64,000 bases of DNA. It comes from Nitrospirota bacterium (GTDB lineage Bacteria > Nitrospirota > UBA9217). Below are positions 2,371-31,457 of the stretch, in pieces. The stretch lies in NCBI GenBank assembly GCA_963737155.1, contig CAVTRN010000001.1, positions 1,536,001-1,600,000 of the forward strand, read 5' to 3'. Positions within the stretch are counted from its first letter, which is position 1. Every line of letters starts with the position of its first letter. A model generated the notes under the pieces. The model was not told the DNA's origin. It worked only from the letters and a program-made list of their open reading frames with translations, and did no database searches. A program made the position numbers and the translations under genes.

Positions 2371-3444
2371 TTATGTTTTATTCTTTTCCGTGCATATTCC
2401 AAGCGGCTCTTTCAGTGCCCCAACTTGTGCCCCCGCCTTTTGCTCTATCGTTGTACCGAATAACTCGACAATATTTTCCAAGCTATAACCAACAAGAAAT
2501 GCATTCATCGGTGTGACAGCATCTGGTGTAACGGTAAACGCGAGTCCGAACAATCCAATTAAGGCAATTAGAATTTTAAGCAGTATATCGCCTTTACGTG
2601 CACTAATGTAGATCAACAAATCATTCACAGGGATAACCGGCGGTAATCCAGATACTTTACTACGTTTAATACTCGAAACACCTATCTGGGTTAATGAACC
2701 AATTAATATTGCACCCCAACAAATTGTTAACGTGACTGCATGTTGAGGTTTTAAAGGCCAATATAAATTAAGCCATGTTCCAAGGTTGCATAAGAGAATT
2801 ATGAATACTATTGCTAGTCCGAATGCTGCCGTTACTGTTAATAAACTCTTGCGTCGTGCTTTAGCTTCTTCCTCGTACTTATATATAAGACCTTTTGCAA
2901 CATTAACAATGCCACCATTAATGACGCTTGGTGCCCAAGCCATATTATTAAGTACGTGGATTCGACCTTCAAGCGACGGAAGTTCGTCTTCAAATATCAC
3001 GTGAAACGGCAAATAATATCCAGGCCTACCTTTTTTAAGCCAGTCATTAACTCGAGCAGGGATCGTCCGATCTCCTACGTGAAACACAATTTCTGAACAT
3101 TGCTCCTGGAGGACGGTTAAATTGAGTAACTGTTCTTGTATATTTGGCGGCACTTGTTCAGGATTCCTAAGTATCTGGTTTCCGCTCATCTGCTCCCACA
3201 CATTAAATATGTGCCGGATAACATCACTGTCTTTATTCTCATTATCAATATTAAGCTTTCCAAGCTCCGATACTAAATTCTCTACATCACTAAATGTCTT
3301 TTTAATATATGCGGTGTTATCTTTCACATTATTATTGCCACCTTTGATACTCGTCAATAATTTATGAAGATCCATCATCTCTGCACGAAGTTCCCGCAGT
3401 GCCTTAATAGTCTTTTCATTCACCTCACGTTCGTGTTCCGTCAT
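2371..3444 (-). CDS. Hypothetical membrane protein (helical N-domain + about 4 C-terminal TM helices)
   Basis: 357 aa ORF, AGGAG RBS, four hydrophobic segments in the C-terminal third. Confidence 0.75.
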   Translation of the reverse strand: MTEHEREVNEKTIKALRELRAEMMDLHKLLTSIKGGNNNVKDNTAYIKKTFSDVENLVSELGKLNIDNENKDSDVIRHIFNVWEQMSGNQILRNPEQVPPNIQEQLLNLTVLQEQCSEIVFHVGDRTIPARVNDWLKKGRPGYYLPFHVIFEDELPSLEGRIHVLNNMAWAPSVINGGIVNVAKGLIYKYEEEAKARRKSLLTVTAAFGLAIVFIILLCNLGTWLNLYWPLKPQHAVTLTICWGAILIGSLTQIGVSSIKRSKVSGLPPVIPVNDLLIYISARKGDILLKILIALIGLFGLAFTVTPDAVTPMNAFLVGYSLENIVELFGTTIEQKAGAQVGALKEPLGICTEKNKT

Positions 3445-10656: not shown

Positions 10657-11003
10657 ATTTCGTTCCTCCCATGAATCCATTTAATGCGTCCGTTCCGAAT
10701 AAAATAATGACATCGTAGTTTGGAATCCCGATAATCGATACTCGGAGAGATGGTAAGAGAATCTTGTATATTTATTGACCAATATGGCCACCGGTTTTTG
10801 TCGGTGTTCAGCATGATACGGTGCCCATTTTGGCACGGACAGTCAAAGGCAATCCATTTCGGGTTTGAAAGCGCTCCAACTAAGATTGCGCCATTACGTG
10901 GCAACCGCAGCGGAATTTCGTCAGCTGACTCTATCACCCCGACAATTCGCCACCCATGGATGGGAAGCCATTGCCACCATGAAATCTTTAAGACGTTGGC
11001 CAT
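10653..11003 (-). CDS. DUF6527 family protein (Bub-associated)
   Basis: WIAFDCPCQNG...W...LTISPSI...CHYFIRNGRIKW signature. Confidence 0.8.
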   Translation of the reverse strand: MANVLKISWWQWLPIHGWRIVGVIESADEIPLRLPRNGAILVGALSNPKWIAFDCPCQNGHRIMLNTDKNRWPYWSINIQDSLTISPSIDYRDSKLRCHYFIRNGRIKWIHGRNEI

Positions 11004-12376
11004 GTTTGCTCCAAAAACGGCTGTGTCATGCCGATTCCCAGCTTACCCGTAGAAGGATGACAATAATGACCTATCCGAGGTTGCGCAATATTGGTCGAAA
11101 TTTCACGTTCGTGACAGCGCATCAACACTTCGCTCGGACGTGGCTCAGGCCCATAACCGATCAAGCGTTCCAACAACTCGCTTACCGCCGTAGCGCTTAC
11201 GAGCGTTGTAAACGTTACAACAGCCGGCTCTGTTTGCGCCAGTGCAGGTGCGTAACCCTCACCTTCTCGGCGCACTCGTTCATCCGGAGTGAGCAGTTCT
11301 GCGCCTGCGCGGGCGAAATCGATCCGGTCACGGCAGATAAGACAGGCATGTCCAGGAGAGAGAATCGTGACGCGGCCGTCGATACCCGTCAATTGACCAC
11401 TTTCATCGCTGCTTAAAAGTACGCCGCAATCAATTATGGGCGTTAGTAGATAGGTTGCAAGGCGAGATAGCACCAAACGACCCGCATTGTCATCAGTGCA
11501 GCCAAAGACCACATCACACCCAATCAGACTGCGTGCAGCTGATTCTAACGTGACCATTGATTGTACTGTTTCACAACGGAGGTTCGGAGCAATCCGCATG
11601 AGATGTCGATTCAGTATCTGCACTTTTGGTTTTCCGATGTCCGATATAGTTGAGCCATACACTCGCGTTAGATTGCTTTCGGAGAGATCGTCAGGATCCA
11701 CAAGGGTGAGATTCCTGACTCCTAGACGAAGAAGTTGCTCGGCAACAGCTGAACCTGTGCCGCCACACCCGACAATCCCGATAGCAAAATCGCCGAGTGT
11801 TTGTTGGACGGCGGCTCCAAAAGCTCGTACATTCCTGTCGAAAATGGGGGATAGCTGAGGCAGTGAGGAATCATACGCTCGGACTAGTCGCCACCGATTT
11901 CCGACTTGCCATAATCGTTCAATTTGCAATGCGTCGCAACGTTCACGCTGCAAATATCCCGTAAAAAACAAATCGGAAGAATGCAACGAAAAAATTAGTG
12001 TCCCATAATATGGGCTGCCTGAGCGGAGACGAAAGAGGTCAGCGATTTCTCTATCCACAATGTGATCATGTTCGCTGGGTCGCGGCGTTGCGTCCTGACC
12101 AGGGTGCGTATGAACCCAAATGCAGGCGGCACCAAGAGTCTCAGCCTCAGCTAACGCATGTACATAACCTTCTGATCGAATCGTTAGCCCATACTGTTCC
12201 CTCCGGCTATAGGCTTCTTCTCCCACCCATCGCATGCAGCGCGCAAGGAGCCTAATATCGCCGTTTGGGGCCTCGGCAACACCTGCCAACATTACGCCTG
12301 CTGTTTCCTTCGGAAGGCTCGTAATCGATAGAATATCTTCTGCTATATCTTGAGGAATTACGACAGATACCGTCAT
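10988..12376 (-). CDS. JAB peptidase-E1 (ThiF) fusion
   Basis: JAB E...VHTHP...S..D; ThiF GCGGTGS, DPD.L..SNL.R, GCTDD, CLIC; GY at the usual catalytic-residue position. Confidence 0.9.
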   Translation of the reverse strand: MTVSVVIPQDIAEDILSITSLPKETAGVMLAGVAEAPNGDIRLLARCMRWVGEEAYSRREQYGLTIRSEGYVHALAEAETLGAACIWVHTHPGQDATPRPSEHDHIVDREIADLFRLRSGSPYYGTLIFSLHSSDLFFTGYLQRERCDALQIERLWQVGNRWRLVRAYDSSLPQLSPIFDRNVRAFGAAVQQTLGDFAIGIVGCGGTGSAVAEQLLRLGVRNLTLVDPDDLSESNLTRVYGSTISDIGKPKVQILNRHLMRIAPNLRCETVQSMVTLESAARSLIGCDVVFGCTDDNAGRLVLSRLATYLLTPIIDCGVLLSSDESGQLTGIDGRVTILSPGHACLICRDRIDFARAGAELLTPDERVRREGEGYAPALAQTEPAVVTFTTLVSATAVSELLERLIGYGPEPRPSEVLMRCHEREISTNIAQPRIGHYCHPSTGKLGIGMTQPFLEQTWPTS

Positions 12377-13528: not shown

Positions 13529-13591
13529 AATTGAGCATAGTAGGTTAAAATTTTCCACAAGAAGAAATTGAATGTCCAGAGAGGAGCCATT

Positions 13592-13969
13592 ATGAAAGTG
13601 GAAGAAAAAGAGCGTACTACAATGACTCTCGGCGGATATCTATACAATCAACGACAGCGAAAGAAAATGACGCTCCGAGAGGTTGAGGAGGCTACAGAAC
13701 GTGCTGTCTCCAATGCATACTTAAGTCAATTGGAAAACAACAAGATAGTGAAACCATCGCCGAATATACTTTTCAGTCTTTCTTCAGTTTACGGTATCCC
13801 TTATGCGACTCTTATGGAAAAAGCTGGATATATTTCGGATATGACTGACCGCCAGACGGGTAGACACGGGCGCGTTGCCACTTTTGCAGATGAGAAACTC
13901 ACTCAAGAGGAGGAGGAGATCCTCTTAGAATACCTCGCTTTTTTAAGAAATCGTAGAGATAAAAAGTGA
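13592..13969 (+). CDS. XRE-family HTH regulator (CapH-like)
   Basis: TLREVEEAT..VSNAYLSQLEN..I.KPSP.IL..LS.VY; GAGGAG RBS before ATG 13592. Confidence 0.85.
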   Translation: MKVEEKERTTMTLGGYLYNQRQRKKMTLREVEEATERAVSNAYLSQLENNKIVKPSPNILFSLSSVYGIPYATLMEKAGYISDMTDRQTGRHGRVATFADEKLTQEEEEILLEYLAFLRNRRDKK

Positions 13970-14883
13970 TAAAACGAGACGACTCTTATTTACCACCTGA
14001 CAGGCTCACCGCCGTCAAGAAAGAAGCCAATCGCGCATTAAGAAATGCGGATGCTTATGGTGTGTTTCCCACGCCTATAGAACAAATTTTTGAGATGGCA
14101 AAAGTCGACCTGGCTCCAGAAGACGCTTTCCATACTGGCCTTGTTCGTAGATTTAGAAATAAATTCGGCGATACTCTCAGACGTGCATTATCAAAAGTTA
14201 GTGGAATATTTGACGTCGCAGGACGCATAATCTACGTCGATCAGACCCTCCATGCGGTCAAACAAACCTTTCTCAAATTGCACGAAATCGCGCATTCCTT
14301 TATGCCATGGCAGCGCAACCTGTATTCAGCAATAGAAGATTGTAAAAAAACAATAGAATCAGAACAAGCTGATGCTTTTGATCGGGAGGCGAATGTCTTT
14401 GCTAGCGAAGTATTATTTCAAGGCAATCATTTTATGGAAGAAGCAGCAGACTGTACTTTTGGAATATTGACACCTGTTAATCTCAGCAAAAAATATGGCG
14501 CTTCGATTTATGCAGCAGTCCGCCGATATGTACGAACAAATCCCCGAGCCTGCGCCGTTCTTGTTATTAATAGTCCTATTTTAGCAGAAGTCGATGGATT
14601 CATAGCTACTCTTCGAAGGGTAGAAATGTCGGAAACTTTTTTACTACAATTTGGCAACATTGCGTTCGCGGAACAATTTACGCCTGATGATCAGATAGGC
14701 GCTATGATCCCGATAGAAAAACGAAGAATGACAAGACCACGTATTATTCTTCTTGAAGATATTAATGGAGCAACTCATGAATGTGTTGCAGAAGCATTCA
14801 CTCAGACATATCAGATTTTTATCTTAATTTGTCCCAAATTGAGTTTAACTCGTAAATCAATAGTCGTGCCGCCTTTCAAATAA
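13966..14883 (+). CDS. ImmA/IrrE-family metallopeptidase (CapP-like)
   Basis: FLKLHEIAH (HExxH), REANVFASEVLF; GTGA overlap with the HTH gene region. Confidence 0.85.
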   Translation: MIKRDDSYLPPDRLTAVKKEANRALRNADAYGVFPTPIEQIFEMAKVDLAPEDAFHTGLVRRFRNKFGDTLRRALSKVSGIFDVAGRIIYVDQTLHAVKQTFLKLHEIAHSFMPWQRNLYSAIEDCKKTIESEQADAFDREANVFASEVLFQGNHFMEEAADCTFGILTPVNLSKKYGASIYAAVRRYVRTNPRACAVLVINSPILAEVDGFIATLRRVEMSETFLLQFGNIAFAEQFTPDDQIGAMIPIEKRRMTRPRIILLEDINGATHECVAEAFTQTYQIFILICPKLSLTRKSIVVPPFK

Positions 14884-15491: not shown

Positions 15492-16259
15492 TCAACCATC
15501 TATACCGGCATAATAATTGTAAAACTGCTTAGCTGTTCGTCCGCTTTTACAAGCTCTTAACAGCGAGAACATTCTAGCGGCTTCATGTAGCTTGCTTCTA
15601 TCCCCCCTGTAATTTGGGAAATAACTGTCGATGATTCTCAGGTAGCCTTCCATGTCTGCTTGATAGAACGATAACCAAAGCCCAAACCTATCTGACAACG
15701 ATATCTTTTCTTCAACAGAATCTGTATAATGCAATTCTCCATCAACAATACTTGTCTCTATGTTGTCTTTCATGTGTTCAGGTACTAGATGCCTACGATT
15801 AGAAGTTGCATATAGCAAAACATTGTTTGGTGGCTGCTCGATGGATCCTTCAAGCACGGTCTTCAGGGCAATATATGAGTTCTCATTTTCATCAAAGGAA
15901 AGATCATCGCAGTAAATAATAAATCTTTGCGGAAGTTCTCTTATGTCGTCAACTATGTAAGGTAAATTATACAAATCATTCTTCGATACTTCAATCAAAC
16001 GTAATCCATTTAATTTATATTCGTTCAGTATTGCCTTAATTAGTGATGATTTTCCTGTACCTCTCGCTCCCCACAATAATGCATTGTTGGCCGGCTTGCA
16101 GGAAAGAAATCGCTTTGTATTATTTACCAATTCTTCTTTCTGGTTTTCAATTCCAATCAAGGCAGCTAGAGTAATGGGGTCTATGGCCTTTACAGGACGA
16201 AGCTTACCTTGTTGTTGTCTCCATACAGCTGCATTTATTTGAGACCAGTCTATATCCAT
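15492..16259 (-). CDS. DUF815 family AAA+ ATPase (intact)
   Basis: ANNALLWGARGTGKSSL, IIYCDDLSF, YATSNRRHLVPE, SLSDRFGL. Confidence 0.9.
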   Translation of the reverse strand: MDIDWSQINAAVWRQQQGKLRPVKAIDPITLAALIGIENQKEELVNNTKRFLSCKPANNALLWGARGTGKSSLIKAILNEYKLNGLRLIEVSKNDLYNLPYIVDDIRELPQRFIIYCDDLSFDENENSYIALKTVLEGSIEQPPNNVLLYATSNRRHLVPEHMKDNIETSIVDGELHYTDSVEEKISLSDRFGLWLSFYQADMEGYLRIIDSYFPNYRGDRSKLHEAARMFSLLRACKSGRTAKQFYNYYAGIDG

Positions 16260-16519
16260 AAAAAAATTCCCTCCCACGAAGAGCAAATCATTGTTGATCC
16301 ATGGTCAGTAGCAAGCAATCTAGGATCTGTTTAGCATCGGATTAAAGTTTTGGACATTTGTCATTCATTAGCCCCTTTTCGGGAAAGCTTGATGATTATA
16401 ACGATCTGGCTCTTGCGCTTAATAAGGGTGTTTAAGGCCACCTTACTCTTCCGGAAGATAAAATCAACATGCCAAGAATAATTTCCTTAAAGAGGAAAGA
16501 GTAGTCAAATCGACTGCGC

Positions 16520-17049: not shown

Positions 17050-17970
17050 TTACGGCTTCTGTGCAATAGTTAGAGCCAAGGATGCCTCCCTCTGAAATCC
17101 TTTCGGTAAGCCGTTCATCTGAATGCCTGTGTAATCGCTGCTCAATAATTCGATAGCCCCATGAAATTCCTTCACCCTAAGTTTTTTGCGGAGTTCCCTA
17201 TTAGATTCAACGACCTTCTGATAGTAATCAACCAAAGTTCGACCCAAGTTGTTCGCGGTCACGAGATAAAGCATATGATCGCCCGTAGAGCCGAAATACG
17301 CGTCTATTTCCCAAATTCGTTCCCCGGCTGGTTGGAAGAGGCCAGGCTGCGGCCAGCAAAGGCCTCCGTGGAATATAAGTAAGTAGTTGTTTGTTCCGGG
17401 TTCGTTGATGCACTTGACACGAATAGTTTGCTTGCAATCTTTGCCCGTCTCGTAAATCTTTAGGCTGTCGCCATTCTTTGGACTGATGATAGTCGCCCCG
17501 AGGGTCTCCTGGGATCGGATAAAGGCGGCATTCTGGGAGCGAATCTTCATCGCAAGATCATGCGGGAAGAGAGCAACCTCGACGCCGCGATGCTGAAGTT
17601 TCCACAACCCCTTACCTGTCACGCCTTGATTGGGGTCCAGGATCCCCACGAAAACTTTCCTGATTTCGTTCTGCAGGATCAATTCGGTACAACACTCCAA
17701 TCCTCTCGTTCGGACCTCCGGTGTGCATGGTTCAAGTGTGGTGTATAGTGTCGCTTTCGGCAGCTGAGTCCTATCCTTGACGCCTTTAAGGGCAACGTGC
17801 TCTGCGTGGTCATCGTCGCCTTCTATCCCTGTTCCTCGACGACCGCGTCCAATCACTGTGTCGCCGATAGCAATAACGGCGCCGACTTTTGGGATGCTTT
17901 CCTTGCTCGGGCTGCATTTGTCTGCCCAGTCTATCGCCTCATTCATCAATTTGATGTCAACATTCTCCAT
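17050..17970 (-). CDS. Zn-dependent deaminase (RibD/CMP-deaminase-like N-domain) with uncharacterised beta-rich C-domain
   Basis: PKVGAVI, HAE, LYTTLEPC...CC, GILDPN; no reductase domain. Confidence 0.8.
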   Translation of the reverse strand: MENVDIKLMNEAIDWADKCSPSKESIPKVGAVIAIGDTVIGRGRRGTGIEGDDDHAEHVALKGVKDRTQLPKATLYTTLEPCTPEVRTRGLECCTELILQNEIRKVFVGILDPNQGVTGKGLWKLQHRGVEVALFPHDLAMKIRSQNAAFIRSQETLGATIISPKNGDSLKIYETGKDCKQTIRVKCINEPGTNNYLLIFHGGLCWPQPGLFQPAGERIWEIDAYFGSTGDHMLYLVTANNLGRTLVDYYQKVVESNRELRKKLRVKEFHGAIELLSSDYTGIQMNGLPKGFQREASLALTIAQKP

Positions 17971-18357: not shown

Positions 18358-21276
18358 TTATTCTGCCTTATCCGAGGCACTTTTATTTTCCTTGATACCT
18401 TCCGGTTCAGGCTCATAAACATGAGTAGAGAAGCTAGTAAAATCAATTGGCTGTTCTCGCACCCACGGAATAATGTATGTTCCTACAATTTTATGCAATA
18501 CTCTATCTGTTACGCCTAGTTTTTTACAAAGGTGACCCCAGAGTACGATTTTGCGTGCCATACTAATGCTGGATAGCGACATTATCATAAGGTAAAAACT
18601 TAGTAGGAAGTACATAATTATTGGTAACTCAGAATGATTCTTTGTTCTAAGGTATAATTGTGTTTTCACCATCCATAACGTTATTAGGATAACCAATAGT
18701 GTTGGTATCATTCTAAATAAGAATCGTAACCAATTTCGGCCTGATGCTGACATCTTTCTTGGTAGACTATGCAAGAGGGTTTCGCAAAATACGATTGGGC
18801 GTAAGATAATTAATCGAGAAACACTTTCACTTATAATTGTTCTGAATAGACGATTTGCAATGGATATTTCTTTTGTTTTCTGATTAATTTCTTTATTATC
18901 CCTAATTCCGACAAGTAGTTCAGATAGAAAATCAATTGCTACAGGAAGCAAAAGGATGTCCTCGATACTCAAATATGTGGCCCTCAAGATTGCTTGAGCC
19001 TTTTCAGAGGTTGCATTTTGAATCCTATCTGCGATAACAGAAGCAACAAGATATTCCATGAATGATTTATGTCCAAATCGGAATGTACCAGGAGCAGCCG
19101 GGTCATCTGCTAAGAGGCCGCACGCCCGAACATCTGTTTTGACATGTTCGATACCAAATTCGTTATCTTGTAAACGGATGTGTAATGGTTTTGTGGTTTC
19201 CCCTGATGTTGCGGGTGAATCAGTCGAGACTGATAGTGGAATGGAATTTATTAAAGCGCTTATAGTTTCATTAAGCTGCGTTGCAGTAATCTGATTAGGA
19301 AGTCGTTTTGATGCCATGCAAGCTGCAATACCTGTCATAAAATACTCTCGTTCCAGTGTGGTAAGTGCCATAAACTCTGGTGAGCCAAACTCCTTCAAGC
19401 CTTGTCGTCGATAGCTGTGCCTTATAAATAAATCCATAACGAAAGCAGAAGTAAGTTCGTCAACTTTTTCAAAAAGACGTTCCTTTTCCCAAAGTACAGC
19501 CACTATATGCAATAGAGAAGGTCTTGATACAAGTTCTCTAAAACGAGAATTATTTTCGACTAGAGTATGAATTTGGTAAATTATTGTTGGCTTATAACTT
19601 CTTAAAGCCTCCTTAACTTGCTGAGAATTAAATGGCGCTAGCCGTAACGCTTCACAATATGGACTTTCCCCTACAGGCTTACTAATTCCAAGTGCTGCTA
19701 TCATTTCTTCTTCATCAAGGAAAAAGTTTGGTCGGCCTGTGATTAGTATTTTTGCATTTGGATAAGCAAATTGCCAAAGTGTTCTGAAGTGTTTGAGTCG
19801 CATCTCGAGGTCACCTACTAAAGCCATTTCATCGAATCCCTCAAAAACCAGAACAAGTCTTCCAGCAATAAGCAAACGTAATAGAGCTTGAGGGTTTATG
19901 CCATATTGTGCCGTCCAAGCACCTAGAAATTGGAGTGGGGTCAAATTTCGCGGACTAGTCCCTCTAAGTTCAATTAATATGGGAATACGATTGGACGAGT
20001 TTTGCCACTTTTTTATTAGGTGATAAGCCCACATAACAGTTGCCGTACTTTTCCCTTGTCCATACTCACCCAATAGCGCAATTTGCCGTTGACCGGTTGC
20101 ATCTAGCCAGGTATTTAGATATTCTTCTGCGTTGCGGTTATGCTTTTCGCCATTCTGAATAAAAAAAATAGAAGATGGAACATACACATCACAAAGGGTT
20201 AAGTCTGAGTCAGGTAAATGGTTAATTGTAACTCTTCGCCTAATATCGTTGAAGTAATCCTTGAAATCAATCAAACAATCAAGAAGACTATCTTCAGTTT
20301 CATAACGAATGAATGTGTTATTCCAATTAACAATCGGCTTATTGGTATGCGTTTTTGTTGCGACTATTATCTCGCCAACATTTTTATTATCATGTGAAGC
20401 TATTCGATCAACATACGATAGAAATTCCCTTAGCTTGCTTTCATTTACTTCTTCTAGAAGTGGATTTAAGAAAACCAAATCACCAGTATTAACGTTTGTT
20501 CCCACCCAACAGTTTGAACTATCATGCCAACCGTTATCAAGATCGAACGCATAAGAAGACGACGACAGGCGAACTAACTCCTTCGCTTGGTCTTTCCAAG
20601 CCAATGTATCTCTTACCGATTCTAATTGGGGAATGAACTGTTTTGGATTTATCTCTGTGTATACTTGTAAGGGAGATTCTCGCCTCAAAAGACGTTTGAG
20701 TTCATTCATCCCTTCCATAAAAAAATTTAGGAATTCAGAACGTTGTTCATGTCGATGCTGCTCAATGCTCTTAAGTCCATGCCAGTTCTTTTGTAGTTGG
20801 TGAAGTGTCCAAATAAGAATAATATAAAGTGTAATAATAAAAGCGTAATCAATCCATCGCGTATTTGATTGAAATACGGTCTTGTCAATAAACACACAGT
20901 AGAAAGCATTAGGAATCGACCACGGCATGAGGCCAGTTAGTAGCGATGCAACTAAAAATAGGCTCGCAAATATTGATGTGAAAAATAATAATAAAGAGAG
21001 TTCCTCGCGTAAATGTCGGCTCTGATAGATCCAGACCGACAGGCTACTTTTTATAAAGAGCAATGTGATAATTATCATTATGATACAATATGGGAGTGAA
21101 AAGTTATAATCTAATAAGTCTTTGTTAGATTGAGTGGTTTGTTGAAATATCCCACTCTTGTATTCAATTACTAGAAGGATAATTCCAACTAATATCGAGG
21201 TGGCAATGTTCACAAATATGCTTTTTAATAAGTTAGGAGTGGGATGATTTCCCTGTTCGTTCTTTGTTTTTGACAT
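18358..21276 (-). CDS. NACHT-domain NTPase with N- and C-terminal TM segments
   Basis: Walker A GEYGQGKST, Walker B LVFEGFDEM, KILITGRPNFF, RPSLL, FRFGHKSFMEYL. Confidence 0.85.
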   Translation of the reverse strand: MSKTKNEQGNHPTPNLLKSIFVNIATSILVGIILLVIEYKSGIFQQTTQSNKDLLDYNFSLPYCIIMIIITLLFIKSSLSVWIYQSRHLREELSLLLFFTSIFASLFLVASLLTGLMPWSIPNAFYCVFIDKTVFQSNTRWIDYAFIITLYIILIWTLHQLQKNWHGLKSIEQHRHEQRSEFLNFFMEGMNELKRLLRRESPLQVYTEINPKQFIPQLESVRDTLAWKDQAKELVRLSSSSYAFDLDNGWHDSSNCWVGTNVNTGDLVFLNPLLEEVNESKLREFLSYVDRIASHDNKNVGEIIVATKTHTNKPIVNWNNTFIRYETEDSLLDCLIDFKDYFNDIRRRVTINHLPDSDLTLCDVYVPSSIFFIQNGEKHNRNAEEYLNTWLDATGQRQIALLGEYGQGKSTATVMWAYHLIKKWQNSSNRIPILIELRGTSPRNLTPLQFLGAWTAQYGINPQALLRLLIAGRLVLVFEGFDEMALVGDLEMRLKHFRTLWQFAYPNAKILITGRPNFFLDEEEMIAALGISKPVGESPYCEALRLAPFNSQQVKEALRSYKPTIIYQIHTLVENNSRFRELVSRPSLLHIVAVLWEKERLFEKVDELTSAFVMDLFIRHSYRRQGLKEFGSPEFMALTTLEREYFMTGIAACMASKRLPNQITATQLNETISALINSIPLSVSTDSPATSGETTKPLHIRLQDNEFGIEHVKTDVRACGLLADDPAAPGTFRFGHKSFMEYLVASVIADRIQNATSEKAQAILRATYLSIEDILLLPVAIDFLSELLVGIRDNKEINQKTKEISIANRLFRTIISESVSRLIILRPIVFCETLLHSLPRKMSASGRNWLRFLFRMIPTLLVILITLWMVKTQLYLRTKNHSELPIIMYFLLSFYLMIMSLSSISMARKIVLWGHLCKKLGVTDRVLHKIVGTYIIPWVREQPIDFTSFSTHVYEPEPEGIKENKSASDKAE

Positions 21277-22129: not shown

Positions 22130-22867
22130 CCAAAGCTAAACCCCCGGCTTCGCCGGGGAGAATAGAAAAAGCTATGCTGTAGTATTTGAAAAAGAAAAGC
22201 TCCTTTCCTACAATAAGACCGCTGTTCCGATGGTCATCGTAAGAAAGGAGCAACCAGGTGAAGGAAAGTTTAGCACACACAGTCCATGATTGTAAATACC
22301 ATATTGTATTTGTGCCTAAGCTCAGGAGAAAAGTCATATACGGACGGCTTCGACAGGAAGTTGGCCCGATACTGCGTCGGTTGTGCGAATACAAAGGGGT
22401 GGGCATTTTAGAAGGGAAAGCCTGTATAGACCACATCAATTTGTGTCTGTCGATACCGCCCAAGTATGCAGTAGCGACCATTGTGGGGTATATAAAGGGA
22501 AAAAGCGCGATGATTGTGTTTGAACGGTACAGCAAACACAAGCGGAATTTCAAAGGTCATAGTTTTTGGGCACGCGGGTACTATGTCAGTACGGTGGGGC
22601 TGGATGAAGCGAAGATACGGAAATATATCAAGGATCAGGAAATCAACGAAGCAATTGTGGATAAGTATGATCGGGATGTCCATGACCCTTCTAGGGGTGC
22701 CCGTAGCAAGAGCAATTAGCAGCAATAAACCACGTGACGCGAATGGCTATCGGAACAGCCAAGTGCACCACGATGGACAGAAAAAGAAGATAACCCCTTA
22801 AGGGGTGCAAGTAACACTGCCCCTATGGGGCTTAAGCAAGCCACCGGCTACGCCGGTGGTCATGACT
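22130..22867 (+). mobile_element. IS200/IS605-family element (tnpA only)
   Basis: Subterminal hairpins CCCCGGC-TTC-GCCGGGG (22142-22158) and CCACCGGC-TAC-GCCGGTGG (22841-22859); exact ends approximate. Confidence 0.8.
22258..22719 (+). CDS. tnpA: IS200/IS605 Y1 transposase
   Basis: CKYHIVFVPK.RRK, SIPPKYAV, FWARGYYVSTVG, YIKDQE; HuH motif reads HIN. Confidence 0.92.
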   Translation: MKESLAHTVHDCKYHIVFVPKLRRKVIYGRLRQEVGPILRRLCEYKGVGILEGKACIDHINLCLSIPPKYAVATIVGYIKGKSAMIVFERYSKHKRNFKGHSFWARGYYVSTVGLDEAKIRKYIKDQEINEAIVDKYDRDVHDPSRGARSKSN

Positions 22868-23658
22868 AAAAATCTTTCATGTAGGTAGTAGGCAGAGTGG
22901 TATGGGAAATGTGCAACATGAAATTCGTACTTTGTGATATTTTTATTTAGCTATACCTTCTGTACTAATAATGCCTCCCGAATGGAGTGCAAATATGAAG
23001 TGATTTCGTGATAATTACAGAACTATTCTTCTCGTCGGCGGTGATATTGGCGTTCTCATGTGGGCGGCCATAGAAATAGTTCTTCACTTATTGTAATTAA
23101 CCCCTAAGAATACAAACTAGGTACTAATAACTATTATTGTTTTTTTGTGATATTTGCGGTATTGGCCTATACCCATATTTTTTCACTACAAAAACAGCTG
23201 CCAATGGGGACTATTTTTGGAAATACAGATTGCACGACGGAGCAGCTGATTGATCTGCAAGACCAGTTTGTCGCTTGGTCAGCTCAGTGCACAAAACGAA
23301 CCGGGGTATCGGGGAAGCTGTAGGAGAAGTCAAAAGATTTCAAGATGACACTCCGCCAGAAGTCGTTGCAGCAGTGCTCGTTAAGTTGACTTCGGATTTC
23401 TTCGCACGTGAGTGGAAATTGGGTAAGACGGTACATTAATTACCATCATAAATAATTTTCGGAAGATAGCGTATCGAGCGCCACAAATGCCCGTCGGGTT
23501 GACGACATGTTGAACCAGAGTTCTATTCGATAACTTTTCACTAGTTTTACCGTCCTTGCTGCGCTGATAAGTAAAAAAGCCTGCCAAATAAATATGGCAA
23601 GCTTTTCTTTAATGCAGGCACGAAATTGTGCCATATACTAAATTTTTCTATAGTCGCT

Positions 23659-23979
23659 TCAAGCAACTTTTTTACTTAAGTTTCTGTAATGATGTTTATG
23701 GTAATCTTTTCTACTCACAACATACGAGAATGAGGAAGAATCCTTATGTATGTAAACCTTTCCCATAAATTGATCATCCGTTAATAGCTCTACAATTGCA
23801 TTAATGTTAGATGTAGACTCTACGTTAATTTTGCATTTAGTAGTAAATTTATCAGAAAGCGCAACAGAAAAACGATCAATAGTCCCGATTAGATCTTTTC
23901 GAATTTTACGATAGTGGAACTGTCGCGCAACAAATAACCCAACAACGACAAAAAGAACAGCAACATTAAAAGTATTCAT
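23659..23979 (-). CDS. Hypothetical protein with N-terminal TM anchor
   Basis: VAVLFVVVGLFVA; GAGG RBS; third gene of an AT-rich operon. Confidence 0.6.
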   Translation of the reverse strand: MNTFNVAVLFVVVGLFVARQFHYRKIRKDLIGTIDRFSVALSDKFTTKCKINVESTSNINAIVELLTDDQFMGKVYIHKDSSSFSYVVSRKDYHKHHYRNLSKKVA

Positions 23980-23992
23980 ATTTGTTGTAACC

Positions 23993-24160
23993 TCATCTAT
24001 TTCTGACTATAGCATCAGTTAGCTTGTCGAGTGTATTCTTAATTATTTTTACCTCTGGGGTGCCATTCCAGTTTTTAATTGTATCTAAGATAAAATAAAA
24101 AACAAGTAGAATAGATATTAGATTGGAAACATTCCCTATGTAATTTTTAAAAAAATTCAT
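23993..24160 (-). CDS. Small single-TM protein (55 aa, below the ORF-track cutoff)
   Basis: MNFFKNYIGNVSNLISILLVFYFILDTIKNWNGTPEVKIIKNTLDKLTDAIVRNR*; TAATG coupling to the upstream gene. Confidence 0.6.
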   Translation of the reverse strand: MNFFKNYIGNVSNLISILLVFYFILDTIKNWNGTPEVKIIKNTLDKLTDAIVRNR

Positions 24161-24819
24161 TATTCAATATTCCAGCTTTGTTTTTTTCTCTTGAACCAAT
24201 CTAACTCATCTTTATATTTTTTAAAAGCTTCCAAAAGAATATCAAGACCACTTTCTGTAACTTCAAAAACAAATTGATTATCATCCTTTGTCGAGAGTTT
24301 AATCTCACATATGGGGTATAAATCTAACACTTTATTTTTATCAGTGGGATCTACAATAGATCTAAGACTAGTTACACCAACTATATTGCTAAGTTTCGGA
24401 ACTACCAAACCAACATGTTCTTTTTGAAGAGATTTAATTGCTTTTAGATCATCATAGATGAAATATTTCTCAAGAGATTGAATAACAGAATTGTCTAGTT
24501 CTTTTCCTTTAAAGAATTTAGAAGTTAACGTTTTTATGTCATTAATCGTATCACTAGTTTGCATCCTCTTAAGAAGCTGACTTCTTCTAATAAACTTCAA
24601 TAATTCAACAGCGGCTTTTACTTTTTCTGGATTCTCAAATTTATCAAAAAGTGAATTTACTAATTCGTCAGACTTTGCGCGATTCTGTAAAGATTCTGCT
24701 TCTGCAAGAGTAGTGGCTATATCATTCAACTGCTCAGCTGGCATTGAAGTTAATGTGCTGAAATCTACAAAGAAGTCATTACTTAAATCAACTAAATCAT
24801 CGATTAATTTTATTTTCAT
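24160..24819 (-). CDS. COMMD-like protein (helical N-domain + COMM-like C-domain)
   Basis: PKLSNIVGVTSLR...PICEIKLST...FVFEVTESGLDILLEAFKKYKDEL matches the COMM beta-beta-beta-alpha pattern; 219 aa; CDS is secure, family is inferred. Confidence 0.55.
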   Translation of the reverse strand: MKIKLIDDLVDLSNDFFVDFSTLTSMPAEQLNDIATTLAEAESLQNRAKSDELVNSLFDKFENPEKVKAAVELLKFIRRSQLLKRMQTSDTINDIKTLTSKFFKGKELDNSVIQSLEKYFIYDDLKAIKSLQKEHVGLVVPKLSNIVGVTSLRSIVDPTDKNKVLDLYPICEIKLSTKDDNQFVFEVTESGLDILLEAFKKYKDELDWFKRKKQSWNIE

Positions 24820-24997
24820 ATTTACACTAATAGTTTTTGATAAGTTGATTAATTGTTTCAGCAGTATCCCTATTAAATAAGATGTAACAAATAGACTCGT
24901 ATAAACTACCTACTCAGTGAAGAATTTATGTATTATTAAATATTCTTTTTAAAAAGTCAATAATCTTTATAATAATAATGAACCGTCGGATTCCGAA

Positions 24998-26520
24998 GAC
25001 GAGGTCAAGCTTTTAGTTGAAATTATCTGAGTGGCCCGTTCCCTTCGGCTAAAGTATTTTTATCGGTTCAACGGTGTAAATCATCGCTGTTTATAAAATC
25101 GGATTCGTAGGATCGCCATATGTGAGTTTTCTGAGGCCGAGCCATACCTAACCATCCCCCTTTACGCAGCCTCTTTGACTGTTAGGTCATTTAATTCTTC
25201 CGCTTCGATCCGTTTCATCACGTCCGCGATGAAGGCGTGGCCCTTGATCTTTCTGAATCCTTGTTCAGCATATAAGAGGACAGAAGCGAGCCAGCGCTGC
25301 ATCATCTTGCTGTCGCGGTAGCGCTTTATATTGCCTTCTGCTTTTCTCACCGTGGAAAACATGCTCTCGATAGGATTGGTAGAATGCAACGTCTTCCTCA
25401 AGAGAGCGGGGACCTTCAATCGATGAAGGGTGAGAATGTCTTCTATCGCTTCCATGAGCGAATCAGCCGCCGACTCATTAATGCCCCGAAGCCATTTCTC
25501 CATGTCCAGAAGCATCTGACGAGCGTCCGCGTAATTATTCTGCTCCAGGGCTGTCCGGAACCTCCAGTGTGCGCCTTTCCGGTATTTCTTCGGCAAATGA
25601 TGCTGTATATTCCGGTCCTTGTGGATCGTGCACCGCTGATGGATGAGTTTCTTACCGAAGCGATCCCGGAGTGCCTTGATTACGCCCTTGCCGCCATCGG
25701 TAACCCAGATGATTCGTCGTGAAAGTATCAGACCTCGCCGCTCTATATCAGAAAACAGCTCTTCACACAGTTCATGGTTCTCCGTCGCCCCCTGCCAGAA
25801 CCCCAATGTCTGCTTCTTTCCGGCAATATCAAGCCCCAGCGCCACGATGAATGCCTCTCCGCCGCGGTGAACAGTGTCTAAAAAGACCGCAAAGGGAACG
25901 AATGACGTGAGTGACCGTTCCTTAAACTCCTGAAGCTGTTTTGCTGTTGCCGCGACGATATGGCTCGATACCGTGCTGGCGGACACTCCAAATGCTCGTG
26001 CCGTATCTACAACTGTCTCCGCATACTTCCGGCATGATATGCCCCGAAGCACCTTTCCAAGCAATTCTTCTGCGAAGACTTCCGGTTTTTTCATCTTCTG
26101 ATAGCTCTGCAGTACAATCTCACCCGCCGGACCTCGAAGCCGAGGGTGGGTCACCGGGATCTTCTGATCTCCGATATAGACGGAACCGCCCTGGCTAGCC
26201 CACTTCCGCAGATCGGGACTGTTAGGCTGGTAGTCGGGGCCGGCAATCTCCTCCCGCTCGATGTACATGATCGTCTCTGCCATCATTCTGCCCATTTCCT
26301 TCATGCATTCATCAAAACCCTGTTTCCCTTTTGCGAAGACACAATACATCTGTTCGATGATCTCCCGCCTTCCGTATGCCTCTTCAATTCCTCGTATTGC
26401 CTTTTTTCTCTTCCTTGTGGTATCCTTCATTGAGTGGCTCCTTTCTTTTTTCTCTCTCTACCGTGGATTATGCCACGGGGGAGCCACTCTTTTCAATTTC
26501 AACTAAAAACAGTATAACCT
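24998..26520 (-). mobile_element. IS256-family element
   Basis: Imperfect IRs sharing TTTTAGTTGAAATT...GAGTGGC; flanking direct repeat GGATTCCGAA at 24988-24997 and 26521-26530. Confidence 0.85.
25162..26430 (-). CDS. IS256-family transposase
   Basis: VFLDTVH, VTDGGKG, HQRCTIHK.RN, STNPIES. Confidence 0.92.
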   Translation of the reverse strand: MKDTTRKRKKAIRGIEEAYGRREIIEQMYCVFAKGKQGFDECMKEMGRMMAETIMYIEREEIAGPDYQPNSPDLRKWASQGGSVYIGDQKIPVTHPRLRGPAGEIVLQSYQKMKKPEVFAEELLGKVLRGISCRKYAETVVDTARAFGVSASTVSSHIVAATAKQLQEFKERSLTSFVPFAVFLDTVHRGGEAFIVALGLDIAGKKQTLGFWQGATENHELCEELFSDIERRGLILSRRIIWVTDGGKGVIKALRDRFGKKLIHQRCTIHKDRNIQHHLPKKYRKGAHWRFRTALEQNNYADARQMLLDMEKWLRGINESAADSLMEAIEDILTLHRLKVPALLRKTLHSTNPIESMFSTVRKAEGNIKRYRDSKMMQRWLASVLLYAEQGFRKIKGHAFIADVMKRIEAEELNDLTVKEAA

Positions 26521-26846
26521 GGATTCCGAATCCATACATAGTTATAGTAATGGACACATGAAGTTTATCTACCAGATTAACTTCGATAATATCACTTCTT
26601 TTGTAAACATTATACCATGAAGATAGCTCATTCATCAACAGTGATTATGCGTGCGAATTGACTCACAATAAATGGAAAAGTCAGAAAAACCGATCGATTT
26701 ATTTATTATTATTGGGTATTCGTAACGTAGTGTGGATTCCCTCTGGTTTAATGCCCTGTGCACATCGTGGCAAAATCGTAAAATAGTGTTGAAATTCACA
26801 AATTGACAATGTATACTCAAATCGTAATCTAGTGTGGGAGGCACTT

Positions 26847-27152
26847 ATGTTAAAAACTAATATTCAAATCCCGATGATAAAAATCGAAGAGTTCTGCCTC
26901 AAATGGAAAATCAAGGAATTTTCTTTGTTCGGTTCGGTACTCACGGAAGATTTTCGTCCCGACAGCGACGTGGATGTGCTGGTGACGTTCGAGCGGGGTG
27001 GCAGTATTACGTTTGACAATCGCGTGGACATGCTGGACGAGCTGAAGGCAATATTTGGAAGAGAAGTTGACCTTGTCGAGAAAAAGGCCATCAGCAATCC
27101 TTTCCGCAGGCACTCGATCCTCACGACAAAGGAGGTCCTGTATGCGGCCTAA
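26847..27152 (+). CDS. MNT nucleotidyltransferase antitoxin (MntA-like)
   Basis: LFGSVLTEDFRPDSDVDVLV; FGREVDLV; GGAGG RBS. Confidence 0.9.
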   Translation: MLKTNIQIPMIKIEEFCLKWKIKEFSLFGSVLTEDFRPDSDVDVLVTFERGGSITFDNRVDMLDELKAIFGREVDLVEKKAISNPFRRHSILTTKEVLYAA

Positions 27153-27504
27153 TGAACGGGATGCCGCATATCTCCTGGACATGCTTCAGGCAGCAGAGAA
27201 GGTCCGCCGTTTTGTTAACGGGATAAAACAGGAGGAGTTTGCTGAAAACGGGGTGCTACGTGATGCCATCGAACGCAATATCGAGATCATCGGAGAGGCC
27301 GCTCGCAAAGTGACGGAGGCGTTTAAAAAGCATCATCCTGAAATTCCTTGGCGCAAGATAATTGCCCAGCGCAACGTGCTAGTTCACGAGTACGATAAGA
27401 TTGGTGTGGATGAAATGTGGAGTGTGGTGACGTTTCATGTACCAAACCTGATAGAGAATCTTGCGCCGTTGATACCTCCCACGCCGCCGGAGGTCGAATC
27501 CTAA
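27142..27504 (+). CDS. HEPN/DUF86 RNase toxin (HepT-like)
   Basis: IEIIGEAA, IPWRKI..QRNVLVHEY (RX4H); GGAGG RBS. Confidence 0.9.
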   Translation: MRPNERDAAYLLDMLQAAEKVRRFVNGIKQEEFAENGVLRDAIERNIEIIGEAARKVTEAFKKHHPEIPWRKIIAQRNVLVHEYDKIGVDEMWSVVTFHVPNLIENLAPLIPPTPPEVES

Positions 27505-28847: not shown

Positions 28848-30572
28848 TTATTTTACACTCCCCGCTACCCACTTAAGTAAATCCCTAGACCATCTAAAAT
28901 AATATTCTGGCCCCTTCTTCGACGGATGGCGCTTTGATTTCAGTTTAACGTTTTTTTCACTGAATTCCTTAATCATTTTCTTTAAGTGAATACAGTTTAC
29001 ATATTTTTGCATTAAATCTTTAGCATGTTGCACTAAAATATTAATGTCATCACTCGATACCAATACATAAGTACCTGGACCATTGGGCAAGTTCCTATGG
29101 TCGACTTCTACAAGACAGACATTTCTCCCTTTGTAATTAAACGTTGCACATCTATAAAGCCGCATATCCCAATTGCAGTTTTTATAGCTTTCCCTCTGCG
29201 TTAACCTCTTTGTTTGTTTTTTCCCACGCCGTTCGGGAACATCCCTTTCTGGAAACATTTCCCAGCTCTGAACACCTTCAGCATCACTAAGATAATTCAT
29301 TAACTCGTTAAAATTCTCTAAACAGAAATATGCCTTTTGCTCATCACTATTTTCGGTTTTCCCCCTGCTCCTCTTCTCCACATTGGCTTTCCGCGCAAGC
29401 GTTTCATTCTCGGCGTTCGGGTCTTCAATGACGCTCATGGGAACATCACCTAATACTTCTTCCGCGGTACGGGCATCACCCTCAGCAGCCTTTTCATTAT
29501 CCACCTCGGGGATGATAACATGAGCAATTTTTATTTTTTTTAGGTTAGAGTTTCGTTCTTCTTTAAGGGAACCAATGATAACGGGTTGCAACTGTGAGGA
29601 AGGCGGTTTGTTCGTGACGAGGTCAATTGTCTTATACGTCCGCGTAGGACGAAGGACTTCAGTTGCTTTGGGAGCCTTTTTCCTCGCACTTCGTTGTATT
29701 TCTAAGTTATCGAAACTGAAGGAGCTGTCTTCCTTCAATATCTCGAAAACAATTATCTTATTCTTTTGTCTCGTCGTATCATCGAATTCTAACCCCCTCA
29801 CTTCCATGTTAATAACTTGCTGAACAGGAAAGTCAAATTTAAGGGGAACAAATTCATTATTTTCTCCTGAAGATATCGCTTCTGAGTGGCGTTGGAGCAT
29901 ACCAGCATATACGGCATTCCACCTCTTCAACGAAAATTTGTTAGTGGCAAATCGAACAATATAAGGAGCATCATATTCGTTGGCGTTCGATTTCAAGTGA
30001 ATAGTTGCTTTATGAGTTTCTAAATCGACTTTAGCATACTCATATAAGCCCTCAAGTCTCCCGAAGAAAAGCTGTCGCCGCATGGCGGATGAGGTGAAGT
30101 AATACCTCGCACCGAGGACTGCACAGGGGAATATGAGCATGCTTTTCTCATCTTCAAAAATGACACAGGGTTGTCTCTTGCAATATTTTGAATAATCAAC
30201 GTGCTTTTCTCCCCGACTGAAGGAATGACTAAGATTATACTCGTCGTCTGTCAGCACATCAGATACCGAGCAGATCCGGTTTTTGTCTGTTGATGTAAAA
30301 GTAACCGGGAAAACTTCTCCAAGGGGTTTAATATCATCTACAAAATTTGTATCTTGATAATGGAGGCCTATAGCGAAATAATCATGTAAAAATTCCGGAA
30401 AGATATCCTCCGTTAAATACATATTGCTATTAATGTCTTTAAAAAGGACCTTGTAAAAGTTCTTACCTGCGACCGTTGAAATATCCATGATCCAAAGGAG
30501 TCTAAAGACTCGGTCTGGATGTTTTGTACTCATCTTAGGGAGCTTTGTAGATTTGATTGATCTCTCGATCAT
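28848..30572 (-). CDS. TnsE-like Tn7 target-selection protein (putative)
   Basis: 574 aa; LIFPCAVLGARYYFTSS in the N-domain; C-domain VCLVEVD...RHP...RW; lies next to a TGT end. Confidence 0.55.
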   Translation of the reverse strand: MIERSIKSTKLPKMSTKHPDRVFRLLWIMDISTVAGKNFYKVLFKDINSNMYLTEDIFPEFLHDYFAIGLHYQDTNFVDDIKPLGEVFPVTFTSTDKNRICSVSDVLTDDEYNLSHSFSRGEKHVDYSKYCKRQPCVIFEDEKSMLIFPCAVLGARYYFTSSAMRRQLFFGRLEGLYEYAKVDLETHKATIHLKSNANEYDAPYIVRFATNKFSLKRWNAVYAGMLQRHSEAISSGENNEFVPLKFDFPVQQVINMEVRGLEFDDTTRQKNKIIVFEILKEDSSFSFDNLEIQRSARKKAPKATEVLRPTRTYKTIDLVTNKPPSSQLQPVIIGSLKEERNSNLKKIKIAHVIIPEVDNEKAAEGDARTAEEVLGDVPMSVIEDPNAENETLARKANVEKRSRGKTENSDEQKAYFCLENFNELMNYLSDAEGVQSWEMFPERDVPERRGKKQTKRLTQRESYKNCNWDMRLYRCATFNYKGRNVCLVEVDHRNLPNGPGTYVLVSSDDINILVQHAKDLMQKYVNCIHLKKMIKEFSEKNVKLKSKRHPSKKGPEYYFRWSRDLLKWVAGSVK

Positions 30573-30729
30573 GCCGTATAGAAGAGCAAAGGATCTCCTA
30601 ATGGATGAAACAATACTTTATGTATTGCGCGGGACACCTTTGACTGGGCTAGATTAGAGAAAAATGGCGATAAGAGAGCGAGAATGCTTATTTTGGGGGG
30701 ATTAAGCGGACTTGTTTCACGGGTACCAC

Positions 30730-30800
30730 TATTTGTTGTGTCTTTTATTGAGCCAGTTGCAATATATTTTGTGTAGTTGCAATAACTAATAGCTATGACA
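30730..30800 (-). mobile_element. Tn7-like transposon end
   Basis: Minus strand TGTCATAGCTATTAGT-TATTGCAACT-N10-TATTGCAACT (20-bp period; plus-strand AGTTGCAATA at 30755 and 30775); coincides with the DUF815 break and the GC shift. Confidence 0.7.
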
Positions 30801-31294
30801 CCGCCGTCCATGATCGTTTTCATTTCCTTGTAATCGACCTGTCCCTCTTCGAAGGACAGATCGTCAATGAAGAGAATGAACCGGTAAGGAGTGCTCCGTT
30901 CAAGAAGATCATACATCTCCTGAATCGTGAGAATATCGTGCTTGTAGACCTGGATCATCCGGAGTGATGAGTTGTAAAAAACCGTAAGCAGGGACTTTAT
31001 AAGCGACGATTTGCCTGTACCGCGCTCACCCCAGAGCATAACGTTGTTTGCCTTGTTGCCGTCGATGAAATTCTTCGTATTGTGGATGACTGCCTTTTTG
31101 ATCGAATCGATGCCGATCAGGTCGCCTGTATCGATCTGGACCGGCCGCCTGACCGGGTTCATGGATTTCCGCTTTCCGTCCCAGAGAAAGGCCTTATAGC
31201 CGTCAAAATACGGTGTTTCCGGTCCGCTGTCCACGTAACGATCAAGCAGTTTGTCAAGTTTGGTTAGAATTTGCCCGATGTCGGCTTTGTCCAT
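30801..31294 (-). pseudogene. DUF815 AAA+ ATPase, 3' truncated by insertion
   Basis: NNVMLWGERGTGKSSL, LFIDDLSF, KTIMDGG, then homology stops before YATSNRRHL. Confidence 0.85.
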
Positions 31295-31457
31295 GATCTG
31301 CACTATACTCCTGTGTGTCCACGGGCGACTTTGTTGCACTGTAAATCCAAAGCACCGTTCACCCACGGTTTAATGTTTTAAAAAAGCTCCGGATACTAAG
31401 CCTCGATCAAAAAAAGAGGGATAACCGTTTTTAGCCTTCTTTAAGATACTTTTGTTC

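Follow-up and report, generated by a model that had tools for sequence, protein, structure and literature searches.

A divergent COMMD-like protein heads an AT-rich, apparently mobile three-gene cassette with two small predicted membrane proteins in a Nitrospirota bacterium

The 64,000-nucleotide stretch of DNA analysed here (positions 1,536,001 to 1,600,000 of contig CAVTRN010000001.1, assembly GCA_963737155.1, from a Nitrospirota bacterium of the UBA9217 lineage; the whole stretch is called the window below) carries on its minus strand a compact group of three genes, which we call A, B and C. With high confidence we assign the product of gene A to the prokaryotic COMMD-like family as a divergent member, and we consider it probable that the three genes are a conserved functional unit. 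Our model for this unit, which we put forward tentatively as having somewhat less than an even chance of being right, is that the COMMD-like protein heads a mobile cassette and would form a homo-oligomeric ring docked to the inner membrane by the tails of the two small membrane proteins B and C.

Results

Three minus-strand genes form a compact operon

The three open reading frames (ORFs) of 219, 55 and 106 amino acids (aa) lie exactly where a first-pass annotation, made from the sequence alone, had placed them, and the peptide strings quoted there occur in the 219-aa translation. The cassette and the segment that holds it comprise the following features.

24160..24819, minus strand: gene A, 219-aa cytoplasmic protein, very probably COMMD-like (ORF, AlphaFold2 model, Foldseek, family profile, Pfam)
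23993..24160, minus strand: gene B, 55-aa predicted bitopic membrane protein (ORF, hydrophobic segment 7-25, homologues)
23659..23979, minus strand: gene C, 106-aa protein with a predicted N-terminal membrane anchor and a predicted cytoplasmic domain of ~85 aa (ORF, hydrophobicity, homologue)
24932..24960, minus strand: sigma-70-like promoter candidate (TTGACT, 17 nt spacer, AATAAT; 10/12 consensus)
22868..24996, strandless: unique segment of 2.1 kb between two insertion sequence (IS) ends, holding the cassette and a geneless stretch of ~790 bp

Coding sequence accounts for 98.9 % of 23659-24819, and the junctions are as first described, with the stop codon of A overlapping the start codon of B (TAATG) and a GAGG Shine-Dalgarno (SD) sequence 12 nt upstream of the gene C ATG. 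The operon was also rightly called very AT-rich, as the GC content is 0.297 over 23659-24996 compared with 0.471 over the whole window. At the local base composition the chance of an open frame is 4e-9 for 219 codons, 9e-5 for 106 codons and 8e-3 for 55 codons, so that gene B, taken alone, could be open by chance. The promoter candidate lies ~110 nt upstream of gene A, within the unique segment; scored by consensus match only, the region holds 9 promoter-like sites against 6.9 ± 2.8 in shuffled sequence, so that the candidate counts for little by itself. On the minus strand, nothing resembling a terminator was seen 3′ of gene C. The sequencing runs listed for the cassette include no RNA run, and the one soil-metagenome DNA run contains five short pieces at 100 % identity that come from the same strain, and possibly from the source sample, and are hence not independent support.

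The gene A product has the predicted two-domain fold of COMMD proteins

The AlphaFold2 (AF2) model of A, computed without templates, has a predicted local distance difference test score (pLDDT) of 81.5 and consists of seven helices, three strands and a 27-residue C-terminal helix. The seven helices fall within residues 14-136 and make up an all-helical N-terminal (HN) domain, while the C-terminal domain is predicted, at a pLDDT of 85-89 for the block, as the sheet (strands 143-156, 164-177 and 182-187) and long helix (189-215) of a COMM domain. The main text of PMC13392464 describes this same topology for bacterial COMMD-like proteins.

A Foldseek search of the PDB with this model returned 18 matches at an expectation value (E) ≤ 1e-3, and among the matches listed all are either human COMMD chains of the COMMD-CCDC22-CCDC93 (CCC)/Commander assembly (8f2r, 8p0w, 8esd) or the bacterial octamer 9q6a/9q6c, with a probability of 1.00. 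The E values against these COMMD and COMMD-like chains run from 2.8e-7 to 5e-5, the best match being 8f2r_D (2.8e-7) and the second best 9q6a, and full-length COMMD chains align with the model over 201-223 columns. The COMM domain of A alone superimposes on COMMD9 (6bp6) with a template modelling score (TM-score) of 0.71 (3.4 Å over 82 columns), and on the COMM parts of 8esd_F, 8f2r_F and 8p0w_F with TM-scores of 0.55-0.63. Sequence identity in the structural alignments is low, at 9-17 % to COMMD chains overall and 14-16 % to 9q6a.

Sequence profiles lead to the same family. When 1.84 billion representatives (50 % clustering) were searched exhaustively with HMMER, five relatives of A (P0002-P0006) were found at E ≤ 1e-3, which with A itself (P0001) gives six representatives, aligned as A1. 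The closest is P0002 (34 % identity, E 3e-24), and P0004 is a 79-aa COMM-domain fragment. Four of the six match Pfam COMM_domain at E ≤ 1 (best 4.7e-4) and one of the six weakly matches Pfam COMM_HN (E 0.12). Run against the PDB, the six-member profile has as its best match 9q6a ('COMMD-like protein MBK5214510'; profile positions 12-216, E 0.0084), and the 10 matches listed also include COMMD9, COMMD4 and two other entries named 'COMM domain-containing protein'. In a sequence atlas the clusters closest to A consist of unnamed hypothetical proteins (0.90-0.92), and two clusters with COMM_domain score lower (0.84 and 0.76); recognition is below the mark and we treat them as leads only. Gene A is present once in its own 4.84-Mb genome according to the family profile, in line with the one or at most two copies per genome of prokaryotic COMMD-like genes. 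It matches no NCBIfam model and no PADLOC family (PADLOC-DB 2.0) at E ≤ 1, and PHROGs gives it weak matches only, the best at E 0.007, to families that have no known function.

The fold call made at first pass is thus borne out by structure and by sequence profiles alike, and it survives the reservation attached to it, namely the absence of a conserved Trp. The first COMM strand of P0001 lacks a Trp at the position that we take to be that of the conserved Trp in eukaryotic COMMD proteins, and family member P0006 has one in the first-strand column of alignment A1. The missing residue is not disqualifying, as the main text of PMC13392464 reports that Trp is scarce or absent in several members of the prokaryotic family.

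The viral fold database BFVD, searched with the A model, gave no match at E ≤ 1e-3. Below that level, several phage proteins of 68-81 aa align to the COMM domain alone with a probability of 1.00, TM-scores of 0.59-0.62 and E values of 0.02-0.05, examples being A0A6J5NV93 (uncultured Caudovirales phage) and A0A1J0GVR4 (Streptomyces phage BRock); these small proteins could be stand-alone COMM-like domains in phages.

The three genes occur in the same order at a second locus

Both small genes downstream of A are linked to an A homologue, in the same order, on a 2,532-bp metagenome contig (L002), which carries the A homologue at 53-718, a 55-aa ORF at 720-887 and a 124-aa ORF at 902-1276. The A homologue there is 34 % identical to that of the window, and the gene order and the tight coupling of A and B are the same, with TAATATG at the A-B junction where the window has TAATG. 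In both loci the B-C junction consists of a stop codon, a purine-rich SD sequence and an ATG. A third instance may be represented by P0008, a homologue of B, and the COMM-domain fragment P0004, which probably come from the same contig, as each is an ENA singleton on a contig of 1,399 bp. As synonymous sites between the window and L002 are saturated (see below), the arrangement must have been kept over a long time, and we consider the cassette to be probably a conserved functional three-gene unit.

Beyond these loci the family is sparse. Used as a query in a word-indexed protein search, A returned only itself, and profile A1 gave 3 matches among 7,999 candidates scored, all of them known members. 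The corresponding search with B returned itself and P0008; that the L002 copy of B was not returned suggests that small ORFs are under-called in the searched collection. P0002 and P0005 were not found in the genome contigs collection, searches with P0001, P0006 and the B alignment found no relatives among IMG/VR viral contigs, and a tblastn search of the plasmid collection with A gave no match. The family profile detected no A-like gene in 400 other sampled genomes of the phylum. A scan of 401 genomes with Pfam PF07258 matched nothing at all, the window's own gene A and the control genomes included, and is therefore uninformative.

In L002 the cassette is followed by a convergent 311-aa ORF (1528-2463, minus strand) with a GC content of 0.53, compared with 0.26-0.37 for the cassette. 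This ORF matches phrog_10883, a family of unknown function (2.7e-13), and, below the cut-off, the rolling-circle model REP_ORF2-G2P (7.2e-4).

B and C are predicted to expose conserved tails to the cytoplasm

Each of the small proteins has one hydrophobic segment above a Kyte-Doolittle threshold of 1.6, at residues 7-25 in B (1.87) and residues 3-21 in C (1.84), and A has none. At both loci and for both proteins, 0-1 Lys or Arg residues precede the transmembrane (TM) segment and 2-5 are found in the 15 residues after it, with 0 before versus 5 after in the case of gene C of the window. According to the positive-inside rule, the positively charged side of a TM segment is cytoplasmic. By this rule B and C are predicted to be N-out/C-in, which would place their conserved tails in the cytoplasm, the compartment of A.

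B is the best-conserved gene of the cassette (65 % identity to its L002 counterpart, 78 % to P0008), and 30 of its 55 positions are invariant across the three sequences, including polar residues in or near the TM segment (N10, N13, S16 and D26) and most of the tail, which carries the motif NW.G.PE..IIK.TL.KLT. For the pair formed by B and its counterpart in L002, the values of pN and pS are 0.21 and 0.80, the latter saturated, which indicates that gene B is under purifying selection. C is 33 % identical to the 124-aa ORF of L002 (E 3e-9).

B and C are each single-copy in their own genome. The B profile found two matches only in the 400 other genomes of the phylum, with per-genome E values of 0.003 and 0.0096, which is about what chance would give over 401 genomes; neither genome has an A-like gene. 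None of A, B and C is matched at a meaningful level by PADLOC, PHROGs, Pfam or NCBIfam models.

The cassette lies between two unlike insertion sequences

The first-pass annotation had called the operon transposon cargo, a claim that stands only in part. The unique segment does lie between the ends of two mobile elements:

24997..26430, minus strand: IS256-family (Mutator-type) element, near end at 24997/24998, far end beyond the transposase ORF 25162-26430 (Transposase_mut, E 4.9e-35)
22258..22867, plus strand: IS200-type element, from its Y1 transposase ORF 22258-22719 (Y1_Tnp, E 2.1e-33) to its near end at ~22867

As the two flanking elements belong to different families (IS200-type Y1 and IS256/Mutator-type), they do not constitute a composite transposon, and composite-transposon cargo was rejected as a description; IS256 copies elsewhere in the genome carry the IS end only and no cassette.

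The terminal 163-164 nt of the IS256 element (24997-25160) occur at 10 other places in the genome with 100 % identity, and an end ~90 % identical occurs at at least 9 places in one congener (G087). The 11 identical ends, that of the window included, together with the G087 copies, point to a recently active IS expansion. At the other flank, the stretch 22800-22867 of the IS200-type end recurs in the same genome and in relatives. The 2.1-kb segment in between was not found in the 14 other genomes of the genus (completeness 74-99 %).

Within this segment the cassette (~23640-24996) has a GC content of 0.30 and the remaining ~790 bp (22868-23658) one of 0.38-0.43; taking both loci together, the cassette has 0.26-0.37 and the adjoining DNA 0.38-0.58. 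Low GC content at both loci, a segment otherwise unique and a presence limited to the strain indicate, as far as composition and distribution can tell, that the cassette moves horizontally. The geneless remainder contains no RNA family (Rfam), no tRNA and no Pfam match. About 44 nt of it (23501-23545) recur at 87-91 % identity in the two congeners G087 and G139, and no RNA family or tRNA was seen in this interval of the window.

Genes of the surrounding region

The term defence island, also used at first pass, is a fair description, as several defence-type genes lie within ~15 kb of the cassette. The neighbouring genes are:

9097-9993, minus strand: dCTPase of the cytidine/dCMP-deaminase family (PADLOC dCTP deaminase defence model, 2.3e-80)
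10988-12376, minus strand: E1-like ThiF protein (many PADLOC E1-E2 models, best 1e-19)
13568-14883, plus strand: CapP-like M78 peptidase (1.5e-14), preceded by an overlapping 133-aa ORF
15492-16286, minus strand: DUF815 (AAA-type) gene
17050-17970, minus strand: second deaminase (Pfam MafB19, Inv-AAD; no PADLOC match)
18358-21276, minus strand: NACHT protein of 972 aa (central NACHT, E 1.9e-6; weak N-terminal match to the three-TM YLATT; no PADLOC match)
26832-27504, plus strand: MNT and HepT toxin-antitoxin pair, overlapping ORFs (MNT matches PADLOC PDC-S09, 3e-26)
28848-31366, minus strand: DUF815 (AAA-type) gene matching profile positions 3-138 of 249 only

The 133-aa ORF that overlaps the peptidase gene could encode a CapH-type partner. 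The translation of the 972-aa NACHT protein also has hydrophobic stretches near its C-terminus, and the protein looks like a membrane-embedded STAND/NACHT protein. The MNT/HepT pair sits between IS256-type and ISL3-type elements. A 574-aa ORF, unmatched in Pfam and PADLOC, shares 4 nt with the second DUF815 gene, and the pair could form a two-gene system with a function yet to be assigned. The same ~15 kb also include a radical-SAM protein that weakly matches viperin models.

Discussion

Bacterial COMMD-like proteins were described in 2026 with crystal and cryo-electron microscopy structures (PMC13392464; PDB 9q6a, 9q6c, 9q6d) and a function given there as unknown, in agreement with the first-pass statement that prokaryotic homologues exist with no assigned role; the set compiled in that paper comprises 250 bacterial and 111 archaeal COMMD-like genes. 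These solved structures lower the novelty of the fold, so that what may be new here is its gene context. The protein of the window shares with 9q6a a length of ~220 aa, the HN and COMM domains, a single gene per genome and a function yet to be assigned; it differs in being only 14-16 % identical, in belonging to a tiny sub-family (6 representatives) and in heading a conserved operon with two small predicted bitopic membrane proteins. The sole context clue given in the published texts covered (PMC13392464, PMC12962969, preprint 10.64898/2026.02.02.703414) is a loose association with type VI secretion-like genes in Myxococcota, with no predicted physical partner. A word count of the main text of PMC13392464 gives 0 for 'operon', 'phage', 'defence' and 'defense', and 'transmembrane' is confined to the introduction on eukaryotes. 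No COMMD-like operon with small membrane proteins and no defence link is published in the main texts searched (the supplementary neighbourhood tables of PMC13392464 lie outside these), none of the papers listed for COMMD-like proteins deals with either, and COMMD terms are absent from the defence papers listed in a literature search that combined both subjects.

In the model that we favour, A would dimerise through its COMM domain, and the dimers would assemble into a homo-oligomeric ring, by homology with the solved bacterial proteins, which form octameric or decameric rings; according to the main text of PMC13392464, nine of ten characterised prokaryotic proteins are octamers or decamers or give mixtures in which these occur. 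B and C would then use their cytoplasmic tails to dock or stabilise this ring at the inner side of the cytoplasmic membrane, resulting in a small membrane-tethered COMMD complex that is accessory, probably conflict-related, cargo. The docking step fits a remark in the main text of PMC13392464 that bacterial COMMD rings may depend on extra components for their stability. It is likewise in keeping with the precedent of eukaryotes, where the partner proteins CCDC22 and CCDC93 engage the HN domains and hold rings that act at membranes. Eukaryotic COMMD1-10 (8f2r, 8p0w, 8esd, 6bp6) have the same two-domain fold as A but comprise ten paralogues at 9-17 % identity to A, where A is a presumed homo-oligomer of one gene. 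CCDC22 and CCDC93 are a possible functional parallel to B and C; at 55 and 106 aa and with a predicted TM anchor, B and C show no similarity to them. Ring formation by A would follow from homology with the solved structures, and the contact among A, B and C, like their physiological role, is something we infer. The physical membrane-tethered A-B-C complex as such we consider possible and rather less than evenly likely.

Several points weigh against this model. The match of A to Pfam COMM_domain (PF07258), although its best in Pfam, is below the cut-off (E 0.085; 13.5 versus 22.4 bits); the gathering score does not, however, define the prokaryotic group, because its members share <20 % identity and escape sequence methods according to the main text of PMC13392464. 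Full-length TM-scores of A against COMMD chains are just 0.31-0.41 (rmsd, the root-mean-square deviation, 13-16 Å). Such modest values are to be expected for a monomer model set against subunits that come from rings, and they fit a differing orientation of the HN and COMM domains in the model, yet they do not amount to a tight superposition. The AF2 model of C is poor (pLDDT 54.7), and the topology predicted for B and C rests on a rule of thumb rather than a dedicated predictor. The linkage is seen in two of two readable loci (the window and L002) and in one inferred locus. With context read for two of the six representatives and for none of the distant P0003, P0005 and P0006, it may hold only in the closest sub-branch. 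As to the putative A-B contact, a complex prediction of two copies of A (alignment A1) with B (alignment A2), run without controls, scored 0.02 against a mark of 0.32, which speaks neither for nor against binding. Finally, no complexes between COMMD-like proteins and the products of neighbouring genes were predicted in the lineages covered by the main text of PMC13392464.

A more far-reaching version of the model, which we think quite unlikely, is that the cassette is a minimal prokaryotic CCC core, a ring clasped and membrane-tethered by two bitopic partners, and acts at the membrane as a mobile conflict system in phage exclusion or abortive infection. Were this version true, it would connect a prokaryotic COMMD-like protein for the first time with a function and with membranes, and would suggest that partner-dependent membrane association of COMMD rings predates eukaryotes.

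Defence and addiction modules with small single-TM effectors are a general class, and the cassette resembles them in that its operon is compact, its TM proteins are small, its DNA is AT-rich and mobile and its surroundings are those of a defence island; it differs in that A, B and C have no meaningful match in PADLOC, PHROGs, Pfam or NCBIfam. Two alternatives are of this type. In the first, an unlikely one that overlaps the tethered-ring model and adds a specific role to it, the cassette would act in anti-phage abortive infection or exclusion: the A ring would sense or scaffold in the cytoplasm and, on infection, release or activate B (and C), whose TM helices would oligomerise and depolarise the membrane. 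The defence-type neighbours (the dCTPase at 2.3e-80, the E1-E2-like ThiF protein, the CapP-like peptidase, the PDC-S09 MNT with HepT and the NACHT-TM protein) speak for it, as do the AT-rich composition, strain-specific presence and sporadic distribution of the cassette, and the invariant polar residues N10, N13, S16 and D26 of B might suit a self-associating or pore-lining helix. Co-location is, however, a weak argument because the region is also an IS dumping ground, and the two to three known loci are too few for enrichment statistics near defence genes. Moreover, none of A, B and C has a recognisable phage-sensing or enzymatic domain, a match to any PADLOC family (0 at E ≤ 1 each) or a match to a PHROG of known function, and B is more conserved than A, which would be odd for a simple pore-forming effector.

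In the second alternative, which we regard as highly improbable, the cassette is an addiction module resembling toxin-antitoxin systems, with B a small membrane toxin that A and/or C would neutralise, thereby stabilising the carrier mobile DNA. In size (55 aa) and architecture (a single TM segment) B is like small membrane toxins, translational coupling would fix the A:B ratio, and mobile-element genes adjoin the cassette in both loci, but three genes are conserved rather than two and the long, strongly conserved cytoplasmic tail of B is atypical of small hydrophobic toxins. A, B and C match no toxin-antitoxin family in Pfam, PADLOC or NCBIfam, and no COMMD-like antitoxin was found described in the 'COMMD-like' literature listed.

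We also give little credence to the idea that A alone is a soluble oligomeric scaffold and that B and C are unrelated membrane genes travelling along with it. It would agree with the main text of PMC13392464, where COMMD-like proteins of other lineages have no predicted partners, and the complex prediction made here gave no verdict either way. Against it, the three genes have stayed together, in the same order and equally coupled, at identities as low as 34 % for A and 33 % for C, the saturation of synonymous sites means that the arrangement was long maintained, and B and C were not found without A (single copies in their own genome, and two chance-level B matches in the 400 phylum genomes).

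That the cassette serves a small mobile replicon of filamentous-phage-like or rolling-circle type, in membrane assembly, export or superinfection exclusion, with the window copy a stranded remnant, seems to us a slim prospect. The thought comes from L002, where the cassette adjoins the phrog_10883 ORF (2.7e-13) with its weak REP_ORF2-G2P match (7.2e-4). That ORF is probably a separate unit, however, because it is convergent and its GC content is 0.53 versus 0.26-0.37, and L002 has no terminal overlap that would indicate a circle. Nor were relatives of A or B found in IMG/VR, relatives of A among plasmids, or a viral structural relative at E ≤ 1e-3 in BFVD.

Least probable of all, to a degree that we would almost discount, is that A is a convergent look-alike of the CT584/Cpn0803 or Whirly/Pur-alpha type: the 9-17 % identity to COMMD chains and the sub-threshold Pfam score of P0001 would allow it, but CT584/Cpn0803 are weaker matches by four to five orders of magnitude (E 1.5e-2 and 3.6e-2, versus 2.8e-7 to 5e-5 for COMMD chains), both domains of A align to the latter in the right order over 205-223 columns, and independent sequence profiles also point to COMMD. 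The chlamydial CT584/Cpn0803 proteins (4mlk, 3q9d) do share with A a bacterial helical N-domain and a COMM-like C-domain and are among the Foldseek matches, with TM-scores of 0.18-0.26. Membership of A in this group was rejected, as all full-length COMMD chains are better matches than 3q9d_B (E 1.5e-2) and 4mlk (E 3.6e-2); according to the discussion of PMC13392464, CT584/Cpn0803 form hexamers via the HN domain and are 'not strictly COMMD-like'.

Returning to the tethered-ring model, the cassette would be a concrete lead on a stated open question, resting on two to three loci. It offers B and C as specific candidate partners for a COMMD-like protein, in an arrangement that persists at 34 % identity, and the whole of it fits a 1.2-kb construct, so that it can be tested directly. 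If B and C do not bind, A simply adds another divergent protein to a family described not long ago, encoded in a mobile region rich in defence genes. However, if they do bind, this would address the suggestion that extra components stabilise bacterial COMMD rings and would tie the prokaryotic family to membranes, a link that, if true, matters for the origin of Commander.

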